A DNA stretch of 60,614 nt from Candidatus Peribacteria bacterium (GCA_041691135.1 JBEPVF010000009.1:1-60614), one strand, 5' to 3'. Shown: positions 5,411 through 45,182, counted from the stretch's first letter. Numbers and translations: made by a program. The notes: generated from the letters alone by a model not told the origin.

Positions 5411-5504
5411 AAGACAACCCTTCCTCCCGCTCGTCGGGAGGACGGAGGGGCCACCACTGCGGTGGCCCTTTCGATGTGTCTGCAACTTCGATAATCTTTG
5501 AGGG

Positions 5505-6470
5505 ATGAATTTTCTGCGCGAATTTTTTCGGTCGCTGTTTCTCTCGTGCACATCGCTTGAGTATTACAACGAGGTGTATCGCAAGCCAATGGCGTTTTCG
5601 TGGAAGTATCTGATTGTGTTTTACGTGCTCATCGCAGCTGTTGTTGCCGGTGCTTTTACGTATGCCTTCGAGCCGGTTCAGCCGTCGCTGATAGGGATTG
5701 GGTCGCCGGAATGGCGGACGATGGTGGGTATGTTTCCATCGGATCTTCAACTGTCGCTGGGAAAGACTGGCATACATATCAATAAGTCGCTGCCATACGC
5801 GATCCCGATCACCAAAGAATTACTGCAGCAGCAGGAGCCAGCTATAACGGATGCGCAATATCCGGTACTGCGCGAAGAGATGACGAAGCGGGGATTTCCG
5901 ATCAATGCATTCACCTTCATCGATGCAGATACCATCAACACCGATACATTTCCTCAGTACCAATCGTTCGCGGTGGTCGCGCGACGGGAAGTGGCGATGA
6001 AGAAGAGTACAACGTCACCCTCCATCACTATTACGGCGATGCCCCACTTGAGTCTTCCATTCGCCATCACACGAACGCGGCTGGAAAAATTCACAGGGGT
6101 GGTGCAGGCATTCCATTTGTATGACCGCAGTGCATTCACCTTCTTCGTGTTCACTTTCGGAACACTGTTCCTGTGGATGGTGATGATGGTGGGATCACTT
6201 GTGCGTATCGGGGTTTCGTCGCTCATCATGATGGCGGTGTGGACCAAAAAGATTCGCTACAAAAAAGTCTTTCAACTGAGCATTCACGCCTATACGCCGC
6301 TTATCCTGGTGTCGTTCATTCCGGTGCCATCTTCCCTTCCCTGGTTTGCGACCATCCTACGTCTCGCCTATTTCGTGTGGATGTTTGTGATTCTGCAACG
6401 ACTGGAGAGAGACGGAATTATTGGCTTGGATCAGCCGAAAAAAACAACGCCACAGAAAAAGAAGTCATGA
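5505..6470 (+). CDS. DUF1189-like membrane protein
   Basis: N-terminal TM, extracellular domain, several C-terminal TMs with YKKVFQLSIHAYTP pattern. Confidence 0.65.
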   Translation: MNFLREFFRSLFLSCTSLEYYNEVYRKPMAFSWKYLIVFYVLIAAVVAGAFTYAFEPVQPSLIGIGSPEWRTMVGMFPSDLQLSLGKTGIHINKSLPYAIPITKELLQQQEPAITDAQYPVLREEMTKRGFPINAFTFIDADTINTDTFPQYQSFAVVARREVAMKKSTTSPSITITAMPHLSLPFAITRTRLEKFTGVVQAFHLYDRSAFTFFVFTFGTLFLWMVMMVGSLVRIGVSSLIMMAVWTKKIRYKKVFQLSIHAYTPLILVSFIPVPSSLPWFATILRLAYFVWMFVILQRLERDGIIGLDQPKKTTPQKKKS

Positions 6471-6567
6471 ATTTATACACAGGCCGTCTTAGCCTGCATG
6501 TCCTTCTGCACAGGTCGTTCTGAGCAGAGGGTTGGTCCTTGTTTTGTGTCCAGAAGGAGGATTGGCG

Positions 6568-7041
6568 ATGAAGCCTCTGTTGACTCTACTGGCGAGCGCT
6601 GCGTTCATGCTGGCGTTGGCAGGTGTTTTTTATTCCTTGTCGAATGCGGAGTACGACAAAGAATTGAGATCGTACACGCCTGCATTGATCGTGTTTGTCA
6701 TGGGTCTGATGGTGTCGGCGATGGCAGGGCTCGTCGTGGCTCTCCATTGGGTATTTGGTCAACCGATTGTTGCTCCCCAAAGCTCTGATCAGTGGATGAC
6801 GGTTCTGAGGGCGAGTCTCTGGAATGCACTTGCCACGCTCTGTTACTTCACGGCTTACCCCCTCGGGGGTGATGCAGTGATGAATACGAGTATCATGGGT
6901 CTCATTCCGGCGGGAGCATGCCTCTTCCTGTTTCTCTGTTGCGGCAAAGTGCCCAAGGTGAGACAAGTGTGCGGCGTACTTCTGGCCATGGCTTCGGCTT
7001 TGGCCTTTGCGGCGCCACCGCCCAAAGACAGCCAGCACTGA
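6568..7041 (+). CDS. Small multi-TM protein, EamA/DMT-like
   Basis: About five hydrophobic helices, C-terminal QVCGVLLA; AGGAGG 7 nt upstream. Confidence 0.55.
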   Translation: MKPLLTLLASAAFMLALAGVFYSLSNAEYDKELRSYTPALIVFVMGLMVSAMAGLVVALHWVFGQPIVAPQSSDQWMTVLRASLWNALATLCYFTAYPLGGDAVMNTSIMGLIPAGACLFLFLCCGKVPKVRQVCGVLLAMASALAFAAPPPKDSQH

Positions 7042-7069
7042 CTCATGTTTTCCGAACACGAAACTCGGA

Positions 7070-7101
7070 CTGCCACGTCGCGCAAGCGACGTGGCGGTTT
7101 T
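7070..7101 (+). terminator. Intrinsic terminator
   Basis: CTGCCACGTCGC-GCAA-GCGACGTGGCGG-TTTT. Confidence 0.75.
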
Positions 7102-7242
7102 GCCATGCCTATTTTCTTGACCTGCTTCGTCATTTTCTATTCTGTATGCGCACTGGTCAGGATGGCCCGCATCAACTGTTGTTGATACTGGTCTTGGACG
7201 ACTGGTATCTGCTCATTGTTCTGACTGTGGAGTTTTCGACTG

Positions 7243-7611
7243 ATGGAACGTTCGACTGCAGTTGAGTTGCTGAAGTCTCTCAAGGAGAGCGGAATCAAGT
7301 ATTTCGATGACAACCCATTCGATCCGGTCGCAGAGCTCTATGTTGAACTCTGTCGGCAGGGCTACGAAACGCATCACAAGCTTCTTGTTGCAGTTGGAAA
7401 GCGCATCAGGGGTGTGAAGCCCCTCCGTCCATTGGGCCCACACAAGATGTGGCTGGATGGGCTCTGTGAAGGCAACAAAGATATCCTGGTGACTCTGCTG
7501 CTCCATCCCGACGGCGTCAAAGCGTTGGAGCGCTATGCCGTTGTACACCGAGAACGGCCCCATCACGTGTGTTGGGATTCCGTTGGGTTCGCAGTTGAAG
7601 CCACAGCCTGA
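7243..7611 (+). CDS. Hypothetical protein (122 aa)
   Basis: GGAG upstream, globular composition, hairpin downstream. Confidence 0.5.
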   Translation: MERSTAVELLKSLKESGIKYFDDNPFDPVAELYVELCRQGYETHHKLLVAVGKRIRGVKPLRPLGPHKMWLDGLCEGNKDILVTLLLHPDGVKALERYAVVHRERPHHVCWDSVGFAVEATA

Positions 7612-7648
7612 ATATCGAGCAGTTTCCGAGGCCCTGTCCTCGGACCGA

Positions 7649-7682
7649 CGCCGCCCTCCCCACCGGGAGAGGCGGCGGTTTT
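7649..7682 (+). terminator. Intrinsic terminator
   Basis: CGCCGCCCTCCC-CACC-GGGAGAGGCGGCG-GTTTT. Confidence 0.6.
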
Positions 7683-7685
7683 GCA

Positions 7686-8618
7686 TTATCCAAGTTTGCT
7701 TACCAATTCTTTTACATCGCTCACACTTTTTTCGAAGGCGGTTTTTTCATCGGCATTCAGCTCCACTTCCACTACGCGTTCCACGCCGTTTGATCCGAGC
7801 ACGGCCGGCACACCCACGAAGTAGCCACCCACATTGAATTCTTTGTCGCAGTAGGCGCATGCGGGCAGCAGTCTTTTTTTATCGCGCACGATGGCTTCGA
7901 CCATCTGGATCGTCGCCGCGGCCGGTGCGTAGTAGGCCGAACCTGTTTTAAGCAATGCGACGATTTCGGCGCCGCCATCGCGGGCGCGTTGCACGATCTC
8001 GTTCAATCGATCAGCTTTGATCAGTTGCGTGACGGGAATGCCGCCGATCGTGGTGTAGCGCGGCAGCGGCACCATCGAATCGCCGTGGCCACCCAAGAGA
8101 AGAGCGGATACATCTTCCATTGATACATTCAGTTCCATGGCGATGAATGTTTTGTAGCGCGCCACATCCAAGATGCCGGCCTGACCCACCACGCGGTTCT
8201 GCGGAAAGCCACTCGCTTTCCAGGCGACGTACACCATCGCATCGAGCGGATTGCTCACAACGACGAGGATCGCATTGGGACTTGCGACAGCGGCTTGCTT
8301 GGCTACGCTCTCGACGATCTTCGCATTCGTTACCAATAGATCATCGCGACTCATGCCCGGTTTGCGCGGCAATCCGGCAGTAATGACGACGACATCACTG
8401 TCTTTCGTATCATCGTACGAATTTGTTCCGGTGATGTTGCCATCGAATCCTTCGATCGGTCCGCACTGACGCAAATCGAGTGCTTTGCCCTTCGGCATGT
8501 CGCCGCTCTCGGGAATATCGAGCAGCACGATGTCGCCGAGTTCCTTCTGCGCCGCCCACATTGCCGCTGTGGCTCCGACGTTTCCGGCGCCGATGATGGA
8601 GATTTTTGGTCGCTTCAT
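7686..8618 (-). CDS. mdh: Malate dehydrogenase (LDH-like MDH)
   Basis: [26 protein letters not shown] motifs. Confidence 0.95.
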
Positions 8619-8741
8619 ATGTGCCGATGATACCGAAAGACAGACGGTCGACGAAGCAGAATTGAGGATCGTGAATCAGGAAGCAGAATTCGTACTTTTC
8701 CCCATTCTTACCTCTAAATTCTTGATTCAACTTCGACAAAT

Positions 8742-8769
8742 TTGACTCCCTTCTTTTGAACCGTAGAGT
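8742..8769 (+). promoter_or_regulatory. Promoter of the putative leader peptide
   Basis: TTGACT-N16-TAGAGT, 7 nt before ATG 8777. Confidence 0.6.
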
Positions 8770-8776
8770 ACCCGCA

Positions 8777-8833
8777 ATGACTCATTCATCTTCCGTTCTC
8801 GCGCTCGTCTCTCTCGTCCTCCGGACGATCTGA
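8777..8833 (+). CDS. Putative 18-aa leader peptide MTHSSSVLALVSLVLRTI
   Basis: Leaderless ATG after the -10 box; stop immediately before the alternative hairpins. Confidence 0.5.
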   Translation: MTHSSSVLALVSLVLRTI

Positions 8834-8834
8834 T

Positions 8835-8882
8835 GCGAGGTGTGAACGGAACTGACTCTCACCTCGCGCCGGGGTGGTTTTT
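8835..8882 (+). promoter_or_regulatory. Putative attenuator (antiterminator/terminator)
   Basis: GCGAGGTG(8835-42):CACCTCGC(8860-67) is mutually exclusive with CACCTCG(8860-66):CGGGGTG(8870-76) followed by GTTTTT. Confidence 0.55.
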
Positions 8883-8903
8883 GTATCTCTCCTCCTTCTC
8901 ATT

Positions 8904-9215
8904 ATGAATGCTGCCTTAAGGGCTCACCGTCCTGACGCGAATGAAGACACGCCGGCAGAGCCGACTTTTAAAGAATATCCCAGTGATACGGGCAACGTAG
9001 TCATCGAAGCGCAACTTGGAAAAGAAAAAATCGTAAGAGTCATACAGACGTATGGCAATCCGTTTGATACCACTATGTACCGCGAGGTCTTGGTTCGTGA
9101 GCTGCGTGGTGAGCCGCCTGCAAATACGTACCATCCCAACGGAAAACCGGATTATCCGGTAGAGGAAACGCTGCCTGTTCGTCAGTATCCTGACCGGGGC
9201 AATACTGCTTTCTAA
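8904..9215 (+). CDS. Hypothetical protein (103 aa) downstream of the attenuator
   Basis: ATG after a pyrimidine tract; stop overlaps the convergent NRAMP stop. Confidence 0.55.
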   Translation: MNAALRAHRPDANEDTPAEPTFKEYPSDTGNVVIEAQLGKEKIVRVIQTYGNPFDTTMYREVLVRELRGEPPANTYHPNGKPDYPVEETLPVRQYPDRGNTAF

Positions 9216-10474
9216 CGCCACGTCGCTTCAATCAATGCCACTGATGCGCCGCCCATGAAGAGCGTGATGAGCCAGCCGAAGATATTGGCCAGCGGACCGT
9301 TGGTGTGCTTACCCATGATCTGTTTGTCGTTGGCGATCATCAGAATCAGGAACATGAGCGGCGGCGCCACAAGGCCGTTGATCACCGCCGTGTAGTACAG
9401 CATGCGGAACGGCGGCACGCCGACGAAGTTCACCGCTAAGCCGATGAGTGTGGCTAACGCAATCACGCTGTAGAAGCCGGGCGCTTGGTAATATTTTTTG
9501 GAGAGCCCCTCGGAAAGTTTGAACGTTTCGGCGACGGCGTACGAGGCTGATGATGAGAGGACGGGAATGGCCAACAAGCCCGTTCCGATAACGCCGATGG
9601 TGAAGAGAAAGGAAGCGAAGTGGCCGGCAATCGGTTCCAATGAGCGCGCCGCATCCGCGGCACTCTTGATGGTCGTGATGCCCTGTCCGTGCAATGTCGA
9701 CGCCGCGGTAATGATGATGAAGAACGCCACGAGGTTGCTGAATACCATGCCGATGAGTGTATCGATGCGCATTTCCTGCAGGTCGGCTGGCTTTACTTTG
9801 GGTTTTCCTACTCCCATTGCTCGCAACATGTGGCGGTCCACTTCCTCTTCCACTTCTTCACTCGCCTGCCAGAAAAACAGATACGGCGAGATGGTGGTGC
9901 CGAAGATGGCGACGATGTTCATCACGAAGTCTTTGTCAAATTGGATGGTGGGAACGAACGTGTTTCGCAAAACCTGAGTCCAATCCTGATGCACGATGAA
10001 CGCCGTCAGAATGTAGGCGAACAACGCGAAGGTGAGATACTTGAGGAACTTCGCATACAAGTGGTAATCGACGAAAATTTGGAGCAACAATGTGCCGACG
10101 GCAAAAATGAGTAGTAACAAGGGAAAGGGAATACCGGTGATCAGTTCGCCCGACGATGCCATGGCACCCAAGTCCGCGCCAATATTGATCGCGTTGGCGG
10201 CGAAGAGCAGGAAGACGGCGACGTAGAGGATCGACGGCGTGTAGTGTTTGCGGATTACTTGTGCGAGGCCTTTGCCTGTCACCATACCGATGCGACCGCA
10301 CATTTCCTGGATGGCGGTCATGAACGGAATGCTCAGGAAGATCGTCCACAGTTGCGTATAACCGAACTGAGCCCCTGTTTGCGTGTAGGTCAAAATTCCT
10401 GACGGATCGTCGTCCGAAGCGCCGGTAATAAACCCGGGGCCGAGGGAGCGGAAAATTTTACGCGGGTCGTACAT
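9212..10474 (-). CDS. NRAMP-family divalent metal transporter
   Basis: LGPGFITGASDDDPSG and GTTISPYLFFWQ motifs, ~11 TMs; start placed 7 nt after TATTAT. Confidence 0.9.
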   Translation of the reverse strand: MYDPRKIFRSLGPGFITGASDDDPSGILTYTQTGAQFGYTQLWTIFLSIPFMTAIQEMCGRIGMVTGKGLAQVIRKHYTPSILYVAVFLLFAANAINIGADLGAMASSGELITGIPFPLLLLIFAVGTLLLQIFVDYHLYAKFLKYLTFALFAYILTAFIVHQDWTQVLRNTFVPTIQFDKDFVMNIVAIFGTTISPYLFFWQASEEVEEEVDRHMLRAMGVGKPKVKPADLQEMRIDTLIGMVFSNLVAFFIIITAASTLHGQGITTIKSAADAARSLEPIAGHFASFLFTIGVIGTGLLAIPVLSSSASYAVAETFKLSEGLSKKYYQAPGFYSVIALATLIGLAVNFVGVPPFRMLYYTAVINGLVAPPLMFLILMIANDKQIMGKHTNGPLANIFGWLITLFMGGASVALIEATWR

Positions 10475-10689
10475 GAACTTCATAATAGCGCTTCTTCCAC
10501 AGTGAGAAATTGATAATTGAGAATGGAGATTTGCTTCTCGCCGTTCCTCTAAACAGCAGGTTGATATGCCTTTCGAGAGTGCCACAATTGCATAAACTAT
10601 CCTTGACTTTCGTTTCTGTGGCCCTGTAGAGTCTCGTTCCACGTGATTCCCCAGCCTTTTTATAAGGTTGGGTTCTACCCAAGAATCCC

Positions 10690-11250
10690 ATGCCAACCCT
10701 TTCACCTTCATCGGAGGATGTCCGCATCTATGAGTGCGCGGTCCTGTATCCGAACGACCTGTCCCAAAAGGAAGAGGCCGAATTGATCAAAGAGATTGAA
10801 GGCTACTTCGACGAAGTCGGCGCCAAACTCATCAGCAAAGATGCATGGGGCATGCGCGGACTGGCCTATCCAGTCGAAGGTCACAAAGAAGGCAAATACA
10901 CCATCTACTACTTCGAGATGGATCCGGCCAAGCTAAAGGAAGTCGATCAGGCATTGCGCATCAATAGGAACGTTTTGCGTCACTTGTTCGTCAAACCACC
11001 CAAGCACTACCAGATCATCAAATACAGCGAGGCATACGAAGAGTGGATGAAGACGCGTGAGAGCGTTGAACAGGTCCGTGCACGCGAAAAAGAAGAGAAG
11101 GTGAAGGAGCAGGTGGCCAAGCGTGCCAAGAAGCAGGTAGAGAAGGCGACGACGGAGCGCAAAAAGGCCCCCGGCGACAAGCCTGCCCTCGAACACGGTC
11201 AGCTCGATGCGAAACTCGAAGAGCTCCTTTCCGATTCCACTGATCTCTAA
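10690..11250 (+). CDS. rpsF: 30S ribosomal protein S6 with long charged C-terminal extension
   Basis: YE...WGMRGLAYP...VLRHL; directly upstream of rpsR. Confidence 0.93.
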   Translation: MPTLSPSSEDVRIYECAVLYPNDLSQKEEAELIKEIEGYFDEVGAKLISKDAWGMRGLAYPVEGHKEGKYTIYYFEMDPAKLKEVDQALRINRNVLRHLFVKPPKHYQIIKYSEAYEEWMKTRESVEQVRAREKEEKVKEQVAKRAKKQVEKATTERKKAPGDKPALEHGQLDAKLEELLSDSTDL

Positions 11251-11492
11251 TGGCAAACCAGCAAAAGCAACAGCAACGGCGCGCCGATCCCCGTGGCAAG
11301 AAATGTCCCTTCTGCGACAAGAATGCTCGCTACCTCGATTACAAAGATTACCCGACGCTCAAGCCGTACACCGATTACTTCGGTAACATTCGCAACCGTT
11401 ACTACACGGGCGTGTGTCTGAAGCATCAGAAAATGCTGCGCCTCGGCATCGAACGCGCACGCTTTATGGCGATGCTGGCGTACAGAAAATAA
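11250..11492 (+). CDS. rpsR: 30S ribosomal protein S18 (Zn-binding type)
   Basis: CPFC, DYKD, TGVCLKHQ, IERARFMA; TAATG coupling with rpsF. Confidence 0.95.
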   Translation: MANQQKQQQRRADPRGKKCPFCDKNARYLDYKDYPTLKPYTDYFGNIRNRYYTGVCLKHQKMLRLGIERARFMAMLAYRK

Positions 11493-11520
11493 GAAGACTC
11501 AGAGGATGCGAGGTCGTTGT

Positions 11521-11862
11521 TTAGGCTGCAATGCGGCTCGGTGGATTTGCCTGAGTGTTCGGCACAGCTTCCGTTGTTCTACGCTCATCTGGTGCAGTGG
11601 GTCGGACTTCCGTTCCTTCGTATCGAACGGGGATATAAATTTCTAAATACTTGTCGTCTACGTTGGTTTCCGGGGGCAGTTTTTTTGAGTTATGAAGCCT
11701 AGCTGCTCGTTTGCGTGTCTCGACAATGTGATCATGGATAATTGTGCGATCACTTGAATCGACATTCTCAATTGTGCCTCCGTTTTGCAGAATAGTTGCT
11801 GCTCGCTCCAATGCCTCTTGGTAGCCTGGCTGTGGATAGTTTTGTTCGGGAATATTTGTCAT
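11521..11862 (-). CDS. Hypothetical protein (113 aa ORFan)
   Basis: Lower-GC ORF with upstream TTGACA-N16-TACAAT. Confidence 0.55.
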   Translation of the reverse strand: MTNIPEQNYPQPGYQEALERAATILQNGGTIENVDSSDRTIIHDHIVETRKRAARLHNSKKLPPETNVDDKYLEIYIPVRYEGTEVRPTAPDERRTTEAVPNTQANPPSRIAA

Positions 11863-11942
11863 ACGGTTTAATAATTGGTTAATTTATATTGTACATTAAT
11901 TTTAAATTATGTCAATATACTGCTTCAAATGATAGAAATGCG

Positions 11943-12263
11943 CTATCCAGCATAATGTAGGAGTCTGTTATGGAATGTCATTGATATGTAGCTCTCCGGG
12001 TGTGACTCCTGATATTCCAGCCCAGGGATTGTCGGCCTGGCTTTATGGTTGCCGTGTTTCTCCGTTCTCCACTCAGCAAGCATTAATGTCATTTCCTCGT
12101 CTACCCGTTCATTTGTAATCAGGTAAGGATCTATCTCTTCCAGTCTAGTTCGCAGAGCGTCTACCGCGTGTCGTACGTGAGACGTTAATACAGGTTGTGC
12201 ACGTCGCTTGTTACAGAGAGCTTGTTCTGCAATTTTTGATAAATGATATTCACTATGTCTCAT
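11943..12263 (-). CDS. Hypothetical protein (106 aa ORFan)
   Basis: TATTCT 7 nt upstream of ATG. Confidence 0.5.
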   Translation of the reverse strand: MRHSEYHLSKIAEQALCNKRRAQPVLTSHVRHAVDALRTRLEEIDPYLITNERVDEEMTLMLAEWRTEKHGNHKARPTIPGLEYQESHPESYISMTFHNRLLHYAG

Positions 12264-12391
12264 AGAAGAGAGAATAAAACGGCCGCCATACTCTCACTTG
12301 TTTTGGGCAAGTCAATTAACTGATGTTCTTAGTGGTAAAATTCGGTTCTATAAGCTTTTTGCACCCAAAATTTCTCCGCTATACTTTTTGC

Positions 12392-13135: not shown

Positions 13136-13160
13136 AGGGATCGAGGATTACAGTAACCAG

Positions 13161-16725: not shown

Positions 16726-16915
16726 GAATACTACAGGAGTCTGGTGATACAGGGGAAGAAAGAGAGATAAAGTACGGAGGCACAGGTGACAGAAGTGACC
16801 AAGGTGATCGCAGAGGTATATTCTCTCATATTCTGATGTTTTGCCCCTTCCCATCAATCCCACAGCTTTCCGGAGTGCTATGGAAAAAAAGCCCATTTTT
16901 TGCTATACTAGGGAG

Positions 16916-17257: not shown

Positions 17258-17426
17258 GCATACCGAGGTGATAAAGGTGACCGGTGTGACCGAAGATAGA
17301 GATTGTAAGGATAATCCTCACTTTTGTATTCTTCTGCTTCCTCTGTTTTCGCCGACTATAAGCCCTTTCTGATAAACTGCATGACTTGGTAGCGTCCCCG
17401 CTTTCCCTTCAGTACACTCCCATTCC

Positions 17427-18056: not shown

Positions 18057-18058
18057 GG

Positions 18059-19515: not shown

Positions 19516-19604
19516 GGTGCGTAGTATAGAACACTCGGCATGCACAAGACGACTGTTGCTCGTTGACTCAGGCAGAGTAAAAACTCACTTTAGTAGAGTC
19601 GTAG

Positions 19605-19658: not shown

Positions 19659-19854
19659 TGAGCATTTGCCATACTCGCAGAGCGCCGTCTCTCGGCGCGA
19701 CGCTGAGGTGTTTGCCTGCACCAACCTTCCCAGTCACCATGGGGAGGGTCCTCGGTTTCTTCGGTTCCGTCGGTTGCCTTTCGTCGGGCCGGGTGGGGGA
19801 ATTATTTCCAAATTAACACAGGACCAAGCTCTCAAGTTTGCTATGCTCACATGT

Positions 19855-21807: not shown

Positions 21808-21886
21808 CGGGCATAGTATTCAGGAAAAACCCCAATAAAGGAACCTGAGAATCTGAATAAAAAGAAGGTGAAATGGTTCCTACTCA

Positions 21887-22543: not shown

Positions 22544-22665
22544 CAGCTGCAGAATACTACAGAGTGAGCTATGGGGAAATGAAAGGACGCTGACAAATTG
22601 AGATATTGATAACTGAAAATTGCCAATGAAAAATTGGCAGTTGGAGTGTTGAACTTTCATTGTGT

Positions 22666-24925: not shown

Positions 24926-25126
24926 GGCTCTATTATACGACGAAATCCCAATCGCCAAGCCCCAATAATCAACTAAATTCCCATAGCCAATTTCGAATCA
25001 CAAAATCCGTCAGTGATTGGCTATTTGGGTCTTCATTGGTAATTGAGACTTGGATTTTGGTAATTTTCTCACTATTTTCGATACTTTCTCTGCTGCCACT
25101 ATTCCTCCCATGTTACCATCCTCCTC

Positions 25127-30474: not shown

Positions 30475-30646
30475 AGTGGAGGGAGTGTAGGGGAAAAAGT
30501 ATGGCGGGACACATCTTCCTGGTACAGAGAATTCCGGCCATGGACAGCGAAATACACCTGGAGTGGGCTGGAATAGCTCAGACAGATGCCATAACGAAAG
30601 ATTTTCTCTTGTCAGGCCAGGGCAGTCCTTGTAAAGTCTCCCGGCT

Positions 30647-31790: not shown

Positions 31791-31828
31791 AGGGTGAGTA
31801 TACCTCGGTCTATTGCGTGAGACAGACA

Positions 31829-32397: not shown

Positions 32398-32456
32398 AGG
32401 ATTCAGTCTATGCTCAATACTCTCGGCAGAAAAAATATTTCTCTCAGAACCTGAAG

Positions 32457-34844: not shown

Positions 34845-35044
34845 GAGGGGAGTATAGAAGGTTTGAGAAAGAGGAAGAAGTCGAGTTTTCTTGAAAGAGG
34901 AAACCGAAGCAACCGACGGAACCGAAGATAAAAATCTGATGATAATTCTTTCTGTGTCCGTTACATCACTTCACTATTCAATTTGGCCGTCAATTGCGAC
35001 ATTCGGCGTGGGCGCGTACTTTTTGGGTACTTTCCTCTGATCCA

Positions 35045-37028: not shown

Positions 37029-37100
37029 ATTTATATTTTATTGCTAAATACAAAAATTGGCAAGACCATCTATCAAAATTCTTTTATCAAATGGCCTTAT

Positions 37101-38221: not shown

Positions 38222-38431
38222 TTATACTTTCTTTCCCTGTTGCATGCGCTTGGCGAGCGTGCGGAGGTAGCTCGTCGAGACGCGCATGGTCTTGTAGATA
38301 CCGGTTTGAGGGTCAAAAACGCGTTTCTTCTGCAAATTTACCTTCCACGAACGGCGGGTGTGACGCATTGAATGGCTGCGTGTGTTACCAAATGAGGTCT
38401 TCTTGCCGGTTTTAACGCATTGACGTGACAT
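38222..38431 (-). CDS. rpmB: 50S ribosomal protein L28
   Basis: [18 protein letters not shown]...TRR.W..NLQ. Confidence 0.95.
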
Positions 38432-38573
38432 AAGCTGGGGCAGTGTAGGGAGGCACGAACAGGCAGTCAATAGTGTTCGTTCGAAAGGATTTAGGGGAAT
38501 CAGGCGATTTAAGCTGTTCAGAGGAAGTGATTCAGAGAGATTGCTACATGAGCATTGTGAAATTTTTCAGCAG

Positions 38574-38733
38574 GGCGCTGTCGCTTTCTGCGCGGAAAAG
38601 TGGCAGTACGCCGATTCATCGTGCGCTGATGCCGCCCTCAGTCGCTGAACGCTCCAGCCGGATGTGGAGGCAACCGCCTGCGATGAATCGAACAAATTCT
38701 CTCTGCTGCGGAGAAAGCGACAGCGCCAAAATC
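38574..38733. repeat. MITE-like long imperfect inverted repeat
   Basis: Perfect 16-bp GGCGCTGTCGCTTTCT/AGAAAGCGACAGCGCC and 10-bp CGATTCATCG/CGATGAATCG stems. Confidence 0.7.
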
Positions 38734-38840
38734 ATTACACCGATGCCAGCTTCATTCCTGTCATAGCATTCTTGTATCCCTCGAATTCCGTCATACCGCT
38801 TGGGCTTTCGCACACATCCTTCTAGAATGACGGCTCTTCT

Positions 38841-39515
38841 ATGACAGATTTTCTCAATCCGATTTACATCATCAGCATTCTGATCGCGCTGAGCGTGCAT
38901 GAAGCGGCGCATGGATTAGTGGCGCATTGGTTGGGCGATCCGACGGCCCGTGATAACGGGCGGCTCACGCTCAATCCCATCGCGCACTTGGATCCCATCG
39001 GAACATTGCTCTTCATTATCATCGGATTCGGCTGGGGAAAACCGGTACCGATTGATCCGCGATACTTCAGTCATCCCAAGCGCGACACGGCGCTTGTTTC
39101 GCTGGCCGGGCCGACAAGCAATTTGCTTCTGGCGATCATCAGTTTTTTTGGTCTGTATTTGCTTGCTCCCCATCTGGGTTTGCCATCGGGTTTGGATTTG
39201 GTTGGAGGAGTGAAAACGGGTCCCGTCGGATTGCAGTTTCTGTCCCAGCTCTTCGGCAGCTCGCTGTTTCTGAATCTTGGCTTGATGGCATTCAACTTGC
39301 TGCCCATTGCGCCGCTCGACGGATCCAAGATCTTGGAGGCTTTCATTCCACTGCGCTACGAGCTTCAGTATTCACAGCTGATGCGACAGGGCCCGTTCAT
39401 TCTGCTTGCTCTGCTGCTCATGGGTCGTTTGTTCGGCATAGACGTATTTTCCGGCTGGATTTTGTGGTGGATTGATACGGTGGTCGGAATTTTGGAGAAG
39501 ATTGTCGGACAATAA
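38841..39515 (+). CDS. Site-2 protease (M50 family)
   Basis: HEAAH, AGPTSN, FNLLPIAPLDG. Confidence 0.93.
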   Translation: MTDFLNPIYIISILIALSVHEAAHGLVAHWLGDPTARDNGRLTLNPIAHLDPIGTLLFIIIGFGWGKPVPIDPRYFSHPKRDTALVSLAGPTSNLLLAIISFFGLYLLAPHLGLPSGLDLVGGVKTGPVGLQFLSQLFGSSLFLNLGLMAFNLLPIAPLDGSKILEAFIPLRYELQYSQLMRQGPFILLALLLMGRLFGIDVFSGWILWWIDTVVGILEKIVGQ

Positions 39516-39600
39516 ATGAAAAAATAGTTCGACGAGTTCGCTCGGCAGATGCCGGTGCAGACTTTGTACATTTAGCATGGGCTGACATACAATGCGGAGC

Positions 39601-40335
39601 ATGATGAGGGTGCGACCGTTGCGGACAATATTGGCGGTATTCTGCTTATTTCTGTGTACGAGCAATCCACTCGAAGCAGCGCGCACGGCGAGCAGCGGAT
39701 ACATCGTGCCGCTCGATGTGCAGGGTGCGGGTGGCGGCGACGAAGCGCGATCGACGAACTATCACCTCATCGACACCATCGGCGAACCGAATATCGGACC
39801 GTCGGCCTCGAATAATTACAATCTGCGTGCCGGTTACCGACAGACGACCAGCAGTGATGTGTTCCTCTCGATCTCGGGTTCCACGACGGTCAATCTCGGC
39901 ACGATTGTCGGGGCTGGACAAAGGACCGGTACGGGCAAATGGACGGTGATTACCGATGCGGATGCGGGCTACTCGCTGAGCTGGCGCGCATCGACGGCCG
40001 CCATGGTCTCGGGCTCCGATTCGATTCCGGCCTTCGGTCCGTCAGTGGCGGACACGCCCGACAGTTGGAGTGTGGCTGCGAGCAGTGCCCGTTGGGGCGG
40101 TCACCTGAGCGTGACGAGCACCGATACGGCAGCCGAATGGGGCGCCAATGATGGAGTGGGCAGCAAGTGGTTGAACGTCGCGACGTCGAACCGCACCATT
40201 GTCACACGCACGTCCCGCACCGCTCTGGCCGGCTCCAACGAGTACGTCAACTTTCGTGCCGAAGTCGGCAGCACGGCGATCCAGCCGACGGGGACCTATA
40301 CTGTGACGATCACAATGACGGCAGTATCGTTGTGA
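39601..40335 (+). CDS. Secreted beta-rich surface subunit (WxL/pilin-like)
   Basis: Signal peptide, S/T-rich, C-terminal GTYTVTITMTA strand; paralogue of 41515-42255. Confidence 0.7.
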   Translation: MMRVRPLRTILAVFCLFLCTSNPLEAARTASSGYIVPLDVQGAGGGDEARSTNYHLIDTIGEPNIGPSASNNYNLRAGYRQTTSSDVFLSISGSTTVNLGTIVGAGQRTGTGKWTVITDADAGYSLSWRASTAAMVSGSDSIPAFGPSVADTPDSWSVAASSARWGGHLSVTSTDTAAEWGANDGVGSKWLNVATSNRTIVTRTSRTALAGSNEYVNFRAEVGSTAIQPTGTYTVTITMTAVSL

Positions 40336-40339
40336 TGGA

Positions 40340-40406
40340 AAATTCGAAATCCGAAGCACGAAATTCGAAAATACACCCTGTTTTTCGAATTTCGAATTTT
40401 GTGCTT
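40340..40406. repeat. Heptamer tandem repeats in inverted arrangement
   Basis: AAATTCG AAATCCG AAGCACG AAATTCG ... CGAATTT CGAATTT TGTGCTT. Confidence 0.7.
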
Positions 40407-40452
40407 ATCCGAGTGATTGGGATTTGGTTTTCCTTCCGCTAGTATGATTCCC

Positions 40453-41427
40453 ATGAAGGCAGTGATTCGTGCCCTGTGGCTTGTGAGTGTTCTTGCCGGA
40501 GCAATGCCGTTCGCCGCGGTTGCTGCAACGAAAGCGAATGCCATGCCGCCGATTGTGAAGACGATGGAAGAGGGGGTTGTGCCGGTGTCGAGCGATTTCG
40601 TGGTGGGGCCTACATCGTTTGACCTGGAAGTGGCGCCAGGCCAGGACGATGACGTGACGCTGCTGGTTATCAATCGTCAGGGAAAGACAGTAAATTTCCG
40701 CGTCACAGCCGAAGACTTTTCGGCTGATCCGCGCAACGATGGAACGGTACAATTATTCGGCGACACGGCCGGACCGTTTCCGGCGCGCAACTGGCTGCAG
40801 CCGGCGGCGACCGAATTCTCGTTACGCCATGGCGAGCGCGCGACGATCCCGGTCAAAATAGCGGTGCCTGCCGATGCGGATGTAGGCGATCATTACGCCG
40901 CGCTGATCATCGAACGCGTAAACGAAAATGTAACGAAGGATACGACTCACGTGGAAGTGATTTCGCGCATCGGTTCACTTTTTCTGGTGCGCGTACCGGG
41001 CACTGTTGACGAAGAAGGATCATTCCTGAGTTTGCATCCGCTGCAGAACGTCTTTTTCTCGTACCCGGCTTCCATTGCCTTGAAGGCGCAAAACACCGGG
41101 ACGGTACGACTGAAGCCGATAGGCACGCTCACGATCCGGAACATCTTCGGTTCGGTCGTAGACAGCATCGTTCTCCATAATTGGACACTGCTCCGGGCAT
41201 CGGAGGGGCAGCACGTGGTCGAATGGCATCCGCCATTTGCGCTGGGTCCCTACAGCGTCGAAGCGTCCATGACGCTTATCAATGGCCAGGAACCGTCGGT
41301 ACTCCGCAGTTCATTCTGGATTCTTCCCGTCGTTCCGTTGCTGCTATTTCTGGTTTTGCTGGTGTTTCTTGCAGCTGTATTGCGTTTCTTACGCTCCAGA
41401 TTCCGGGTGGTTATTCAGCGTACCTAG
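40453..41427 (+). CDS. DUF916/WxLIP-like two-Ig-domain protein with C-terminal TM anchor
   Basis: GPTSFDLEVAPG, VPADA.VGDHYAAL, NTGTV...P.G, GPY, TM plus basic tail. Confidence 0.7.
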   Translation: MKAVIRALWLVSVLAGAMPFAAVAATKANAMPPIVKTMEEGVVPVSSDFVVGPTSFDLEVAPGQDDDVTLLVINRQGKTVNFRVTAEDFSADPRNDGTVQLFGDTAGPFPARNWLQPAATEFSLRHGERATIPVKIAVPADADVGDHYAALIIERVNENVTKDTTHVEVISRIGSLFLVRVPGTVDEEGSFLSLHPLQNVFFSYPASIALKAQNTGTVRLKPIGTLTIRNIFGSVVDSIVLHNWTLLRASEGQHVVEWHPPFALGPYSVEASMTLINGQEPSVLRSSFWILPVVPLLLFLVLLVFLAAVLRFLRSRFRVVIQRT

Positions 41428-41514
41428 GCCCCGGACGCTCTTAATTTGTCTTTTTCCGACTTTTTTGCTATACTGAGACGAAAACATCTTCAAAAACACC
41501 CACATACTCATTCT

Positions 41515-42255
41515 ATGAACCACTTACTCACCCCGGGGCGCTTCATTCGTATATGGACGGTCGGCATTGCCGCAACTGTGTCTCTCTATATATTGGTTGT
41601 ATTTTTGGCTGAGCCGCTCCATGGATTGGCCAGTACGTCTTCCAGTTCCACGACGGTGGTGAGCGTGACGGTGGCAGCCGCAATCAGTAATTCCTGCACG
41701 GCATCGGTCTCACTCGGTACTATCACGCGCACGGGCGACACGAGCTTCAATACTTGTGCGGGCTACGGCTACTGCGCTACGAACGCATCAACCTGCACAA
41801 TTACCACCAACAACACTCTCGGTTACACATTGTCGTGGCTGGTGGCGACTGGAACAGGAGCGGCGGGTGCTCGTACCGGTACAGGACATCTGAATGGATA
41901 CGTGCCAGGCAATCGCATTAAAGCACTTAAGCCGGCTGTGTCCGGTACGCCGGAAGACTTCACCAACGAAACACCGACTGCCAACGTTACCGACGATGCG
42001 CGCTGGGCTGCACGTCTGTCTTCGACGAGCACGACGACCGGCGGAGCCGGCATTACATGGGGAGCTGACGGTACGCACGATACGTGGTTGAATGTCGGTA
42101 CGGGTTCGGCAGTCAATATTTCGAACCGTTCGAACTACACATCGTCCGGCGGCGATCTGCAGAAGATCGGTTTCCGTGCGATTATCAACGGAACATCCAT
42201 TGTTCCTACAGATACGTACAAGGCAACGGTGACGTTTACGGCGACGACCAACTAA
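41515..42255 (+). CDS. Secreted beta-rich surface subunit (WxL/pilin-like), second paralogue
   Basis: GYTLSW, ARWAARLS.TST, WLNV, FRA, C-terminal DTYKATVTFTA shared with 39601-40335. Confidence 0.72.
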   Translation: MNHLLTPGRFIRIWTVGIAATVSLYILVVFLAEPLHGLASTSSSSTTVVSVTVAAAISNSCTASVSLGTITRTGDTSFNTCAGYGYCATNASTCTITTNNTLGYTLSWLVATGTGAAGARTGTGHLNGYVPGNRIKALKPAVSGTPEDFTNETPTANVTDDARWAARLSSTSTTTGGAGITWGADGTHDTWLNVGTGSAVNISNRSNYTSSGGDLQKIGFRAIINGTSIVPTDTYKATVTFTATTN

Positions 42256-42398
42256 AACCAAAGACCAGCTAGCGAATCCCAAGTGGAGCGTAGTCGGTAA
42301 AATTTGAATTTTGCGTTTCGTATTTGTTTGGTTCTTGGCTCTTCGCGTCTACTTTTCTTGAGTTGGTTTTCTTCTAGCCTTCTTATAGGATAGCAACC

Positions 42399-43376
42399 AT
42401 GTCCCGTCTCTTGTCTTCTGCATGCGCGGTTGCGTTTGCTGCGAACGTGTTTGCACTTTCCTCTCCTTTTGCCTTGGCGGCATCAGGAGATGCCGTTGTG
42501 CCTGACATAGGAAGTGTACGGTACACACAGCAGCAGAATGCGCCCCAAACGCATGATTTCAGCATCGGACCAACGCGCTTTGAGCTTACGGTGGCGCCGG
42601 GGCATTCGCGTACGATTGAGATCGAATTGATGAGTCAGGAAGGCGAAGATGCAAACTTTCGCTTATACACCGAGGACTTTTCGGGCGGCGAGACGGCAGG
42701 ACAAACGACCAAGCTCTACGGAGCACTCGACGGCCCTTTCCCCGCTAAAACGTGGGTGAAGTCGCTCATCGGGACGTTGGCCCTCAAACACGGACAGCGG
42801 GCGTTCATTCCGGTCACCATCACCGTGCCGCCGGATGCAGAACCAGGCGATCACTACGCCGCGCTCGTCGCGCAACGCGATCCATCCGATGCGCAGAAGA
42901 ATGCACCGGGATTTCAGGTGATCGCGCGCGTCGCGAGCTTGTTCCTGATCAGCGTGCCGGGCGAGGTGGTCGAGAAGGGGCAGGTCACCAATATCAAGCC
43001 GACGGCACCCGTGTATTTCTCCTATCCGGTCCAAGTCACCGTGACCGGTCAGAATGACGGCACAGTTCACATTTCACCCACCGGTACGATCGTTATCCGG
43101 AACATTCTCGGTCTGGTCGTCGATGAACTGCCGTTGCGCGGATGGATCATTCTGCGACATGCGGTAAACACGGTGACGCTTGACTGGCAGCCGCGTTTCG
43201 CGCTCGGTCGCTACACGGCTACCACGAATCTGACCGTACTTGGTCAGACGCAGACGCTCTCGACGAGCTTCTGGGTGATTCCCGCGTTGCCGGTACTCAT
43301 CGCTTTGTTCCTCATCTTCTTTGTGTCATTCGTGGTGCAGTACTTCTTCTCGAAATTTGAAATCAGGAAGAAGTAA
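42399..43376 (+). CDS. DUF916/WxLIP-like protein, second paralogue
   Basis: GPTRFELTVAPG, GPFPAK.W, VPPDAEPGDHYAAL, NDGTVH..P.G, TM plus basic tail. Confidence 0.72.
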   Translation: MSRLLSSACAVAFAANVFALSSPFALAASGDAVVPDIGSVRYTQQQNAPQTHDFSIGPTRFELTVAPGHSRTIEIELMSQEGEDANFRLYTEDFSGGETAGQTTKLYGALDGPFPAKTWVKSLIGTLALKHGQRAFIPVTITVPPDAEPGDHYAALVAQRDPSDAQKNAPGFQVIARVASLFLISVPGEVVEKGQVTNIKPTAPVYFSYPVQVTVTGQNDGTVHISPTGTIVIRNILGLVVDELPLRGWIILRHAVNTVTLDWQPRFALGRYTATTNLTVLGQTQTLSTSFWVIPALPVLIALFLIFFVSFVVQYFFSKFEIRKK

Positions 43377-43559
43377 GAGATGTGGTGACAGGGATGGAGA
43401 CGAAAGAGCTTTTGTTGGATTCAAAAGATTCAGGTGATGGGGGATGAAAGGGATTTTTTCCTGTTAAATGAGCTAAATTCCTCAATTCTCTTGAGTATTT
43501 CAAGAGATACAGTTAATTCACACATAAGCAAATTTATGGTATAATAACCTGTTAAAGGC

Positions 43560-44732
43560 ATGTCTCCACATACACATCCTCTACGGCATTCGCATGTGCA
43601 GCTGACATTGTTGCTGACTGTACTTCTGTGTGTGTTTTGGTTTGTCGACTCCCGGGCATCCGACGGCGCATCGACATCGTCGTCGACGTGTGTGGGCGTC
43701 CATGTGATCAGCGACGACGGGGTGGCCCTGTCGAATAATGATGACTGCGTCGGAGCAATATCGGCTTCTCCTATCGAACCTCCTCCTACGGTAGTGGTGA
43801 CGCCGACGACCAGTGAGGAGAAAGTGCCGTTCGGTTTGTACCGCATCTCACGCGAATATATGCGCGATAAACTCAATGCGCTGTACGCAAAGCGTTTCAA
43901 ACACGGAGCATCGCCCTCGTCTATTTCGTTGCCCGATCTTCCCCCGAATGTGCAGGTCGATGTCATCCTGCCACCGGAGCAAGTGCCCTCCGGTTCTGTT
44001 TCGTCGGCCCAAGTTCCTGTTCCAGGTCCACCATCACCGCCGGTTATGACGTTCACGACCGTCTTGTCACCGGAGGCATTGACCGGCCTATCGTTCGGCC
44101 CGGCATTGCGGGGCCTGTACGGAGCGGCTCCTTTCGTCAATCCGCAGGTGCCGATTCTTGTGATCACCCGACTGTCGGCGCACTATGATCCGTGCGATGA
44201 ACGCATGTGCACGCAGGCAGGCTGTCAGCAGCGTGGAATCATCTGTCGCACCGCACGCATGCTCCAGACGATGCCGACAAACGATGCATTCCAGCGTGCA
44301 CCGGGATCAGAACTAATTCTGTGGGGATTGTTCCTGATCTGGCTGGGTGTGCTGATGGATATCGGTTTCTTTTGGACCGAACGACATCTGCTCTTCCGTC
44401 ATGTAGTGCTGATCAAAAGGTCGCTTGTGTCTCGAACTCTACTTTCCCATCCGGCCGCAGCAGCTGGATATGCTGCAGGTGCAACATCCGCGCAAACAAC
44501 GATCCGATTGAACCATCCAGGCGGTTATTCCAATCCTGCACCTTCACGTTATAAGGCAAAAGCAGTAGGTTCATCTGCTCGTTCCCGGCGTCCTTCTGGA
44601 GCGTCGCGTAGGCGGCGGACAGTCGCATGGGATCGGTGGCTGTCAGCGCGCGATCAAGCTGTGTCAGACCGGTCTGTACGTGGACAATTGCATCGAGGAC
44701 TTGGGATAGCGATTTCCCGTCTGTGGAAATAG
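43560..44732 (+). CDS. Hypothetical membrane-anchored protein with a 4-Cys motif
   Basis: Signal/TM, Pro/Ser-rich linker, C-x4-C-x4-C-x6-C, TM; 3' end overlaps the lemA-like gene. Confidence 0.6.
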   Translation: MSPHTHPLRHSHVQLTLLLTVLLCVFWFVDSRASDGASTSSSTCVGVHVISDDGVALSNNDDCVGAISASPIEPPPTVVVTPTTSEEKVPFGLYRISREYMRDKLNALYAKRFKHGASPSSISLPDLPPNVQVDVILPPEQVPSGSVSSAQVPVPGPPSPPVMTFTTVLSPEALTGLSFGPALRGLYGAAPFVNPQVPILVITRLSAHYDPCDERMCTQAGCQQRGIICRTARMLQTMPTNDAFQRAPGSELILWGLFLIWLGVLMDIGFFWTERHLLFRHVVLIKRSLVSRTLLSHPAAAAGYAAGATSAQTTIRLNHPGGYSNPAPSRYKAKAVGSSARSRRPSGASRRRRTVAWDRWLSARDQAVSDRSVRGQLHRGLGIAISRLWK

Positions 44733-44982
44733 AGGTACCGCCGATCGTCGCGAGCGCCGTTTGCACGGCCGGTGTTGGAGCGGTTGATGAACTGGCCAAT
44801 GCGGGGGCCAGATCTTTTTGCAGAATCGTGTTGTACTCGCCGGCCACCGTTCGTGCTTGCATATCGATGGCACTCTGAAGTCGCATCAGCGACCACCACT
44901 GCCATCCTACAAACAGGACGGGAAGCAGAATAATAATCAAGACGATGAGTGGTCCGTGTGAACGTTTTGGCGTGTCTGTCAT
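44413..44982 (-). CDS. LemA-like protein
   Basis: N-terminal TM, helical body, YNVKVQDWNNRL..SIGSLFA; ATG 7 nt after TATAGT. Confidence 0.7.
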   Translation of the reverse strand: MTDTPKRSHGPLIVLIIILLPVLFVGWQWWSLMRLQSAIDMQARTVAGEYNTILQKDLAPALASSSTAPTPAVQTALATIGGTSISTDGKSLSQVLDAIVHVQTGLTQLDRALTATDPMRLSAAYATLQKDAGNEQMNLLLLPYNVKVQDWNNRLDGSIGSLFARMLHLQHIQLLRPDGKVEFETQATF

Positions 44983-45182
44983 GGTGGGCACTATAGAAAC
45001 AATCGGCGGTTTCATCAAACCCAGATTGAAGTGACCGATGTGACCGGGCAGCAGTGGAGTAAAAGTATGACGAATGATCCTCATTTTTCTCTGCGATCAC
45101 CTCTGTTTTCCGTTTATAGGAGTTGTAGCCGCAGGTAGGCAAATACGGCGTTTTCTGCTATACTGTCTAGATTTCCCTCACT

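Follow-up and report, generated by a model that had tools for sequence, protein, structure and literature searches.

Sigma-70-type -10 boxes next to ATG start codons point to leaderless initiation without Shine-Dalgarno pairing in Candidatus Peribacteria

Introduction

Among the bacterial systems described so far, group C of the GeneMarkS-2 classification comes closest to the gene architecture treated here. This group comprises 1,028 of 4,769 bacteria, mostly Actinobacteria and Deinococcus-Thermus, in which a Pribnow box lies 6-8 nucleotides (nt) from the start, and the passages devoted to it name Mycobacterium tuberculosis, Streptomyces, Corynebacterium and Deinococcus deserti as examples, with an estimated 25-50% of transcripts leaderless (PMC6028130). 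Our subject is a related arrangement in an uncultured member of Candidatus Peribacteria, a lineage within the candidate phyla radiation (CPR). In a contig of 60,614 nt (hereafter the window, meaning the whole stretch analysed), hexamers of the form TAnnnT stand 5-9 nt before about 24 start codons. A preliminary description of the window had read these as -10 promoter boxes from which mRNAs would begin at or next to the start codon and, together with an altered anti-Shine-Dalgarno (anti-SD) sequence, as the mark of a mainly leaderless initiation regime. We show below that such boxes are a genome-wide feature of ATG starts with the statistical signature of sigma-70-type promoters, that Shine-Dalgarno (SD) words are at background, and that roughly 36-40% of transcription units, rather than most of them, look leaderless.

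Other described systems share single aspects of this arrangement. In the archaeal group D (Haloferax, Sulfolobus), a TATA/BRE-type box is located ~26 nt upstream of the start, according to the corresponding passages (PMC6028130). Bacteroidia and Flavobacteriia are described as ignoring SD sequences, their anti-SD being retained but sequestered by bS21/bS18/bS6 (PMC9976891, PMC13000453). Finally, an SD-scarce class iv lacking CCUCC lists Candidatus Peribacter riflensis, with 7% SD genes; where that paper's passages on our subject bring up leaderless mRNAs, they do so for archaea or in a general way only, and they contain no promoter-to-start analysis of Peribacter (PMC10783764).

As far as these passages describe the systems, the present genome resembles group C in having a Pribnow-type box 6-8 nt before the first genes of operons, within an ordinary bacterial promoter, and the 36-40% of units found here falls within the 25-50% of that group. 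However, the other genes of group C use SD with an intact anti-SD, whereas here no SD is seen, the anti-SD is mutated, the remaining genes have pyrimidine-rich leaders and the lineage belongs to the CPR. The likeness to archaeal group D lies in a promoter element whose distance to the start codon is fixed and in 5'-terminal AUG initiation, which in our case would depend on a bacterial -10/-35 promoter. Bacteroidia and Flavobacteriia are likewise bacterial lineages ignoring SD genome-wide, and their promoters are of a different type; unlike their leadered mRNAs with A-rich upstream regions, the genes studied here show canonical -10/-35 elements, pyrimidine-rich upstream regions, many apparently leaderless starts and a mutated anti-SD. 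With Candidatus Peribacter riflensis, the genome shares the lineage, a 16S tail without CCUCC and a near absence of SD (PMC10783764).

Results

Boxes precede ATG starts throughout the genome

The assembly has 1.74 Mb in 35 contigs, with 53% G+C, and the window corresponds to contig C9. Genes were called by a dicodon score on open reading frames (ORFs) of at least 90 codons, with ORFs open at contig ends being dropped, which yielded ~1,300 genes at 80% coverage. A box was defined as TAnnnT and its spacer as the number of nt between the hexamer and the start codon. Upstream of the first start codons of the longest ORFs (n = 1,285), the start of the hexamer peaks at -12 (10.0%), -14 (5.4%) and -13 (3.9%) over a background of ~1-2%; the positional enrichment on which the preliminary description had staked its claim is present genome-wide at -12 to -14, 5-9x over controls. 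The two strands together hold 62,079 ATGs, and 13% of these begin a frame of 150 codons or more. Among boxed ATGs, 210 of 547 do so at spacer 6, 148 of 572 at spacer 7 and 115 of 599 at spacer 8, compared with 6-12% at control spacers of the same phase, and spacer 5 is not enriched.

In-frame ATGs of the 5' zone of genes were then set against two controls, namely the out-of-frame ATGs of these zones and those in-frame ATGs that lie far inside genes (deep ATGs). A box at spacer 6-8 precedes 417 of 3,169 ATGs in the first set (13.2%), versus 82 of 3,291 (2.5%) and 76 of 5,529 (1.4%) in the controls. For GTG, the enrichment is barely perceptible (77/2,621, 2.9%, in frame versus 51/2,377, 2.1%, out of frame), and for TTG there is none (36/2,116, 1.7%, versus 70/3,288, 2.1%), which means that the boxes are tied to ATG rather than to GTG or TTG. 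T-A-...-T is the sole enriched base triple (9.6x), every other triple reaching at most 1.8x, and none of the other -10 variants searched for genome-wide (TAnnnA, CAnnnT, etc.) is clearly enriched, CAnnnT standing at 1.27x. An artefact of in-frame stop codons before the longest ORFs as the source of the -12 peak was rejected, given that at spacer 6 the third box position holds A or G in just 26% of cases and that other in-frame offsets reach no more than ~3%.

A set of starts blind to the pattern was obtained by homology. Briefly, stop-to-stop translations of 1,287 genes were run with tblastn against 280-kb pieces of three relatives, two from the same family (G005 and G040) and one from another family (G020; the genome under study is G000), giving 632 lines of high-scoring segment pairs (HSPs). 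A pair was kept if its best HSP covered at least half of the gene, and 350 genes with 424 pairs remained. The nearest ATG, GTG or TTG at or upstream of the first aligned residue was taken as the anchored start, without regard to the box; 65 genes without an upstream candidate and 13 with a candidate more than 25 amino acids (aa) away were excluded, and 272 starts were obtained. First candidates inside the homologous part served as control (n = 271). At spacers of 5-9, 79 of the 272 anchored starts are boxed versus 13 of the 271 controls. The 79 comprise 31, 15, 21 and 12 cases at spacers 6, 7, 8 and 9 and none at spacer 5; for anchored ATG starts alone, the count is 71 of 182. Among 131 pairs of a boxed ATG and an orthologue, the onset of homology falls within the range from 5 aa before to 9 aa after this ATG in 83, at least 10 aa downstream in 27 and at least 6 aa upstream in 21, the last of which agrees with the expected share of false positives (107/492, see below).

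The boxes carry the features of sigma-70-type promoters

In a logo aligned on the box, a TTG (T 53-55%, T 45-51%, G 31-44%) stands out 23-21 nt upstream of the box T, a position that corresponds to a -35 element at a 17-nt spacer, as do TG at -3/-2 of the box (G 44-48%) and, at spacer 6, a C directly before the ATG in 60%. The 417 gene-start boxes were compared with 158 chance boxes, i.e., those before out-of-frame or deep ATGs. A -35 TTG at a spacer of 16-18 nt is found in 91 gene-start boxes (22%) versus 5 chance boxes (3%), the TG extension in 108 (26%) versus 14 (9%), a pyrimidine at -1 of the ATG in 326 (78%) versus 63 (40%) and specifically a C at -1 in 203 versus 31, with Fisher p values from 4e-6 to 1e-17 for these differences. 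In sigma-70 promoters, the usual +1 lies 7 nt after the -10 box, and a spacer of 6 puts the A of the ATG there; moreover, RNA polymerase is flexible over several bases in its choice of start and prefers a purine after a pyrimidine. The enrichment of these three features over chance boxes speaks for the -10 identity that had been proposed, and the boxes appear to be the -10 elements of complete sigma-70-type promoters, a statement that holds statistically for the set and not for each site.

A boxed candidate is present in 492 of 1,285 genes, versus 107 expected. Divergently oriented genes need a promoter of their own, because their upstream neighbour is on the other strand; 206 of 462 of these are boxed, versus 38 expected, an excess of 36%. 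Among genes following a same-strand neighbour, the numbers are 280 of 805, versus 67 expected. Boxed starts are scarce at gaps below 30 nt to the end of a preceding same-strand gene (18 boxed versus 161 unboxed) and common after divergent neighbours (172 boxed versus 201 unboxed). From these frequencies, about a quarter to a third of the genes would be leaderless, or roughly 36-40% of the transcription units. The earlier interpretation thus stands for the sigma-70-type -10 boxes, the tie to ATG, the altered anti-SD and the missing SD, but not for the word "mainly", considering that just 79 of 272 anchored starts are boxed and that the excess among divergent genes is 36%.

SD words are at background and the 16S tail is altered

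The elements of the window that bear on mRNA-rRNA pairing are the following.

2933-4401 (-): 16S rRNA gene, match to the small-subunit rRNA model of Rfam
2933..2945 (-): 3' tail of the 16S, from the sequence, with TTTCC instead of CCTCC at the anti-SD position
2921-2945 (-): region of the 16S tail and of the AGGGAA/AGGGAG element just downstream

The tail reads ...ACATTTCCTTA and has no CCUCC (UUUCC in the RNA), and the preliminary description was right in calling the anti-SD altered, with TTTCC where bacteria normally have CCTCC. SD words (GGAG/GAGG/AGGA at -18..-5) are at background, preceding 8.5% of in-frame, 8.9% of out-of-frame and 8.3% of deep ATGs, and words that would compensate for the mutated tail (GGAAA, AGGAA, AAGGA) are not enriched either (4.0% versus 4.6% and 4.6%). 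In addition, G is depleted over positions -20..-1 of starts. With annotated starts of E. coli K-12 as a control, 36 of 55 are SD-like and 3 of 55 are boxed. There is no SD signal in the genome, canonical or compensatory.

For a survey of 16S tails, the anchor was present in 25 of 30 loci (L021-L049 range). Across the 15 family members, including our own, the tails are CATTTCC (3), CGTTTCC (1), CACTTCC (6), CATCTCC (2), TATCTCC (1) and the canonical CACCTCC (2), so that 13 of 15 lack CCTCC; the canonical tail is found in 9 of 10 from other families of the class. In all 15 family tails, the base that precedes TCC and the final base of the downstream AGGGA(A/G) covary. This covariation argues that the changes are real and that the tail is constrained by pairing in the rRNA precursor and not by mRNAs, and it suggests that the tail and the downstream element may form a hairpin, either in the precursor or retained. 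In other families of the class, a complement of the anti-SD likewise sits right after the 16S end.

Unboxed genes follow pyrimidine tracts

No box was found at any candidate start of 703 genes, 674 of which have a usable first ATG. These 674 ATGs are preceded by a pyrimidine tract (~yTTCyyCy) starting mostly at -19 to -14. Over the last 20 nt before homology-anchored unboxed starts, C+T amounts to 64% and G to 16-17%, with A at ~20% upstream. Runs of [CT]6 at -20..-3 precede 18.3% of the in-frame 5' ATGs, versus 10.8% out of frame and 6.2% deep in genes. Whatever the context, gaps of less than 30 nt among them, 32-45% of the unboxed first ATGs have such a run, versus 6-11% in controls. Such tracts are present in two other members of the family and absent in another family of the class. 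In the window, examples lie upstream of ATG 26851 (-) of ndk, 29152 (-), 45183 (+) and 1566 (-) of lpdA.

Many of the unboxed genes have a TAnnnT 10-25 nt upstream, which would give them short CU-rich leaders; genome-wide, there is no sharp peak at a fixed promoter distance upstream of the tract. In the reading that we consider likeliest, the leaders of unboxed genes would be unstructured and recruit the ribosome without pairing, possibly by way of an S1-like protein; that the tract is a specific signal is possible but doubtful. The S1 protein binds pyrimidine-rich regions of leaders and is dispensable for leaderless mRNAs, according to the relevant part of PMC3296737. An S1-like gene (C3:80128-81183) has a sub-threshold match to rpsA over positions 4-347 of 516, and IF3 is present in the genome. 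A basic 71-aa ORF with a CU-rich leader (G000:C5, L096:1465-1680, +) has sub-threshold similarity to S21 (20.8 bits, cut-off 27) and is possibly a divergent bS21; Peregrinibacteria are described as often without bS21, in a text whose relevant part does not contain the word "leaderless" (PMC9297842). An "inverted SD", in which the tracts would pair with the AGGGAA/AGGGAG downstream of the 16S, was also considered and is not supported. The TTCCC:CTCCC counts (59:41 in G000, 14:19 in G005 and 23:10 in G040) are unshifted by the rRNA variant, and all C/T 5-mers are similarly enriched.

The regime in relatives

The frequencies for in-frame, out-of-frame and deep ATGs were determined in relatives as well. 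In G005, which has a canonical anti-SD, they are 9.9/1.5/1.6% for boxes and 9.9/8.7/10.6% for SD-like words. G040 gives 12.0/1.5/0.6% and 10.2/16.5/16.8%, and G020, also with a canonical anti-SD, gives 6.7/1.75/1.9% and 11.1/15.7/17.3%. The box signals of six further genomes of the class or phylum are weaker or uninformative (e.g., 13.1/4.3/4.9 in G063 and 11.8/6.7/4.2 in G073), and in the AT-rich class members G052 and G057 a box background of ~10% masks any signal. Since G005 shows no SD use despite its CCUCC, SD was already absent where CCUCC survives, which suggests that SD use may have been lost before the anti-SD decayed. The promoter-at-start architecture is a property of the whole family, including some members with an intact CCUCC.

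Single genes were also followed across loci. For pheT, 14 of 17 orthologues from the same family keep a strict box at a distance of 6-9 nt from the conserved MKISLNWL start, and CAnnnT stands in the remaining three; in other families, one of two is boxed as well. The flanks of these boxes diverge. The yebC start, MSGHSKW, is conserved in 80 of 80 loci and boxed in 30 of 58 loci of the Peribacteria list versus 3 of 24 of the other list, with L207 and L209 counted in both (29/56 for the Peribacteria list without these two). Unboxed Peribacteria copies of yebC (loci L158-L216) mostly have a box 15-30 nt upstream and a short CU-rich leader, and the two modes interconvert in this gene over short evolutionary distances. 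At the level of orthologue pairs, the orthologue is boxed in 20 of 30 cases when our own gene is boxed versus 10 of 36 when it is not for G040, in 15 of 40 versus 16 of 62 for G005 and in 6 of 19 versus 8 of 30 for G020.

Boxes in the window, site by site

All 24 hexamers listed in the preliminary description were recovered with the sequence and spacer given there, from 5492-5497 (+) to 44990-44995 (-), as follows.

5492..5497 (+): TAATCT, spacer 7, ATG 5505, first ATG of a 321-aa ORF without family hit
8627..8632 (-): TATCAT, spacer 8, ATG 8618, malate dehydrogenase (mdh)
8764..8769 (+): TAGAGT, spacer 7, ATG 8777, with TTG at -35
10482..10487 (-): TATTAT, spacer 7, ATG 10474, NRAMP transporter
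12271..12276 (-): TATTCT, spacer 7, ATG 12263, 106-aa ORF without family hit
12380..12385 (+): TATACT, spacer 6, ATG 12392, YebC/PmpR
16904..16909 (+): TATACT with TG extension, spacer 6, ATG 16916, pilin-like ORF
17413..17418 (+): TACACT, spacer 8, ATG 17427, TPR protein, first ATG of the ORF
19523..19528 (-): TATACT, spacer 7, GTG 19515, FtsX
19842..19847 (+): TATGCT with TG extension, spacer 7, ATG 19855, RecO
21813..21818 (-): TACTAT, spacer 5, ATG 21807, VanW-domain protein (vanW), first ATG of the ORF
22551..22556 (-): TATTCT, spacer 7, ATG 22543, RNase H domain protein
24932..24937 (-): TATAAT, spacer 6, ATG 24925
25114..25119 (+): TACCAT with TG extension, spacer 7, GTG 25127, C-terminal processing peptidase (ctpA)
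30484..30489 (-): TACACT, spacer 9, ATG 30474, M16 peptidase
30632..30637 (+): TAAAGT, spacer 9, ATG 30647, L34-like 47-aa ORF (rpmH in the preliminary description), with TTG at -35
31797..31802 (-): TATACT, spacer 6, ATG 31790, cob(I)yrinic acid a,c-diamide adenosyltransferase
32405..32410 (-): TAGACT, spacer 7, ATG 32397, putative gene (71-aa ORF)
34851..34856 (-): TATACT, spacer 6, ATG 34844, PheT
37035..37040 (-): TAAAAT, spacer 6, ATG 37028, patatin-like protein, first ATG of the ORF, with TTG at -35
39588..39593 (+): TACAAT, spacer 7, ATG 39601, similar to the CPR-type pilus protein PamT (NCBIfam), with TTG at -35
40440..40445 (+): TAGTAT, spacer 7, ATG 40453, no family hit, with TTG at -35
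42386..42391 (+): TAGGAT, spacer 7, ATG 42399, first ATG of the ORF, with TTG at -35
44990..44995 (-): TATAGT, spacer 7, ATG 44982, lemA in the preliminary description, with TTG at -35

Counting a TAnnnT 5-9 nt before any in-frame ATG, GTG or TTG in the 5' zone, 21 of the 35 called genes starting within 5492-45100 have a boxed candidate start, versus 6.3 expected by chance from the rate at deep in-frame start-like codons. A -35 TTG accompanies 7 of the 24 listed boxes, the TG extension 3 and a pyrimidine at -1 19; the box of 5505 has neither TTG nor TG extension and is followed by a G at -1.

Six starts had been taken as fixed by homology, and NCBIfam profiles place three of these exactly and the others within a few residues. 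The start of mdh at 8618 is fixed by profile position 1 matching residue 1-3, that of yebC by position 1 matching residue 24 of the longest ORF (12392), and that of pheT by profile 1-789 matching residues 1-794. In the adenosyltransferase, position 1 matches residue 17 and the boxed ATG is residue 14; in recO, position 4 matches residue 77 and the boxed ATG is residue 70; and in the M16 peptidase, whose ATG 30474 lies 108 codons within the longest ORF, the PqqF offset predicts ~residue 111 and the boxed ATG is 109. Homology supports some further boxed starts, namely ftsX within a few residues (start predicted near residue 15, boxed GTG at residue 11) and, more roughly, 24925 (domain profile from residue 18, boxed ATG at residue 12), the PamT-like 39601 (predicted ~residue 6, boxed ATG at residue 4) and ctpA, whose boxed GTG is the start of the longest ORF and agrees with the CtpA profile offsets. 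ATG 10474 sits 79 codons within the longest ORF, and NRAMP profiles begin at residues 82-91, which is compatible but not decisive. With its domain starting around residue 113 of the longest ORF, the RNase H protein leaves 22543 undecided, and ATG 44982 of lemA, 34 codons within its longest ORF and without NCBIfam hit, is not fixed. In the L34-like ORF, the frame opens just 4 codons upstream of ATG 30647.

Some items of the list are weak. The ORF at 8777 has only 18 aa, and the gene is doubtful, its TAGAGT box possibly being the promoter of something else. The vanW spacer of 5 is not enriched genome-wide and has 0 homology-anchored cases, and the GTG starts of ftsX and ctpA belong to a class with slight enrichment genome-wide. 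The profile-placed genes ndk, S6 and lpdA have no box. Boxed starts beyond the list include at least PBP1A 16896 (-), with TAGTAT at spacer 8, and 45183 (+), with TAGATT at spacer 9. ATG 16896 (-) and the pilin-like ATG 16916 (+) are 19 nt apart, and the TAGTAT box of the former overlaps the TATACT box of the latter on the opposite strand. As read from the sequence, the two promoters would face each other and leave no space for leaders; for PBP1A, the start is uncertain, and 16719 likewise has TAGTAT at spacer 8.

Towards the end of the window, positions 47903-60613 (+) form a single open frame of 4237 codons that runs off the window end, with a raised G+C of 0.56-0.58 and a GC skew that is negative; a pyrimidine-rich stretch lies upstream of its ATG, which is unboxed. 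Directly before it lies an ORF at 47125-47913 (+) with similarity to the N-terminus of IS481/IS630-type transposases.

Discussion

From the positions and statistics of the boxes, their promoter features, the absence of SD, the rRNA change and the conservation among relatives, we infer transcription that starts at the ATG and a translation mode independent of SD. In this explanation, TAnnnT would be the -10 element of an ordinary sigma-70-type promoter, which has a TTG at -35, ~17 nt between the two elements and, in many cases, a TGn; with the box placed 6-9 nt before the ATG, RNA polymerase would begin on the A of the start codon or one or two bases from it. The resulting leader-free mRNAs would be translated by recognition of the 5'-terminal AUG, without mRNA-rRNA pairing. 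SD pairing is out of use and the anti-SD has drifted, from CCUCC to UUUCC here and to other variants in relatives, and genes without such a promoter, including those internal to operons, have short, G-poor, pyrimidine-rich leaders. We consider this explanation as a whole probable.

Several observations weigh against it. About one fifth of the boxed candidates are expected to be chance hits (107/492; 21 of 131 orthologue pairs with homology running upstream), and 55% of gene-start boxes have neither a -35 TTG nor a TG extension, which implies that many of the promoters would be weak or reliant on unseen elements. In 65 of 350 genes, tblastn homology begins before any ATG, GTG or TTG in the open frame, for which over-extended alignments, other start codons or assembly errors may be responsible. 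The gene caller is crude and misses small genes. Finally, the leaderless state of individual genes is hardly conserved with two of the three relatives (G005 and G020), G040 standing out, and this weak conservation would mean that genes move between leaderless and leadered modes.

Among the alternatives, the simplest is that the pattern arose by chance and by picking start codons that fit it. The starts of NRAMP, M16, recO, RNase H, yebC and lemA do differ from the longest-ORF start, and ~6 boxed genes would be expected in the window by chance. However, the pattern-blind tests are strongly positive and homology-fixed starts coincide with boxes; these tests refute this reading, to which we give virtually no credence. 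It could also be that the hexamer acts in the RNA, as a UA-rich element of a short leader that recruits the ribosome in place of SD, for which it would be fitting that the hexamer stands as far from the start codon as an SD would, SD being missing from the genome. Operon-internal genes would require such an element, but few of them are boxed (18 versus 161), and the TTG 16-18 nt upstream and the TG, which are absent from chance boxes, would fall outside any plausible mRNA, so that we regard this possibility as very unlikely.

The remaining alternatives accept the promoters and concern the extent of leaderlessness. A regime in which most transcription units are leaderless, the strict TAnnnT undercounting them, would be in line with the 24-26 of ~40 window genes that are boxed, the CAnnnT in 3 of 17 same-family pheT orthologues and the split of divergent genes classed either way into 172 boxed and 201 unboxed. 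Against it, no -10 variant besides TAnnnT is clearly enriched (CAnnnT 1.27x), 111 of 182 anchored ATG starts have no box at spacers 5-9, the leaders of unboxed anchored starts are rich in pyrimidines, a box lying further upstream or being absent, and the excess over chance in divergent genes is 36%; we therefore judge it unlikely. Somewhat less improbable, but still rather unlikely, is that the promoters are real and transcription starts 1-5 nt upstream of the ATG, chiefly at spacers 8-9, leaving very short leaders. Spacers 7, 8 and 9 together are as frequent as spacer 6 (113 and 100 versus 204 for gene-start boxes; 15, 21 and 12 versus 31 for anchored starts), the pyrimidine preference at -1 is strongest at spacer 6, and the boxes that unboxed genes often have 10-25 nt upstream could be seen as the continuation of a series of short leaders. 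Yet the choice of start by RNA polymerase is flexible, C/T at -1 followed by A at +1 characterizes the boxed set as a whole (326/417), and the strict dependence on ATG fits recognition of a 5'-terminal AUG, as in the promoter-at-start explanation preferred here.

Leaderless initiation as a mechanism and the loss of the anti-SD in Peribacter are already known; the lost SD pairing and the pyrimidine-tract leaders are what goes beyond the textbook. The literature searched, some supplementary tables excepted (GeneMarkS-2; S2/S4 of PMC10783764), yielded no paper that connects leaderless genes with Peribacteria, Peregrinibacteria, Patescibacteria or CPR. Six supplementary files of GeneMarkS-2 have no entry for Peribacter or candidate divisions. 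The text of PMC6851277, PMC12641261, PMC7441243 and PMC12641178 has the relevant words only in reference lists or unrelated passages.

The mechanistic surprise is modest, since leaderless initiation is well known. For the biology of the group, one may speculate that Peribacteraceae gave up mRNA-rRNA pairing altogether, relying on a 5'-terminal AUG for ~40% of units and otherwise, operon-internal genes included, on a family-specific CU-rich, G-poor tract 8-19 nt upstream as a distinct signal for ribosome recruitment, for instance via the shortened S1-like protein, with the anti-SD free to drift and tied only to its downstream complement; we hold this wider scenario to be possible but doubtful. 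That SD pairing is unused even where CCUCC survives (G005) bears on the order in which SD and anti-SD were lost. In practical terms, gene starts of Peribacteria and similar CPR genomes have to be predicted with a promoter-at-start model instead of an SD model, several starts in the window being located 20-108 codons within the longest ORF. Operon-internal initiation without SD also becomes addressable, with the pyrimidine tracts as a candidate signal.

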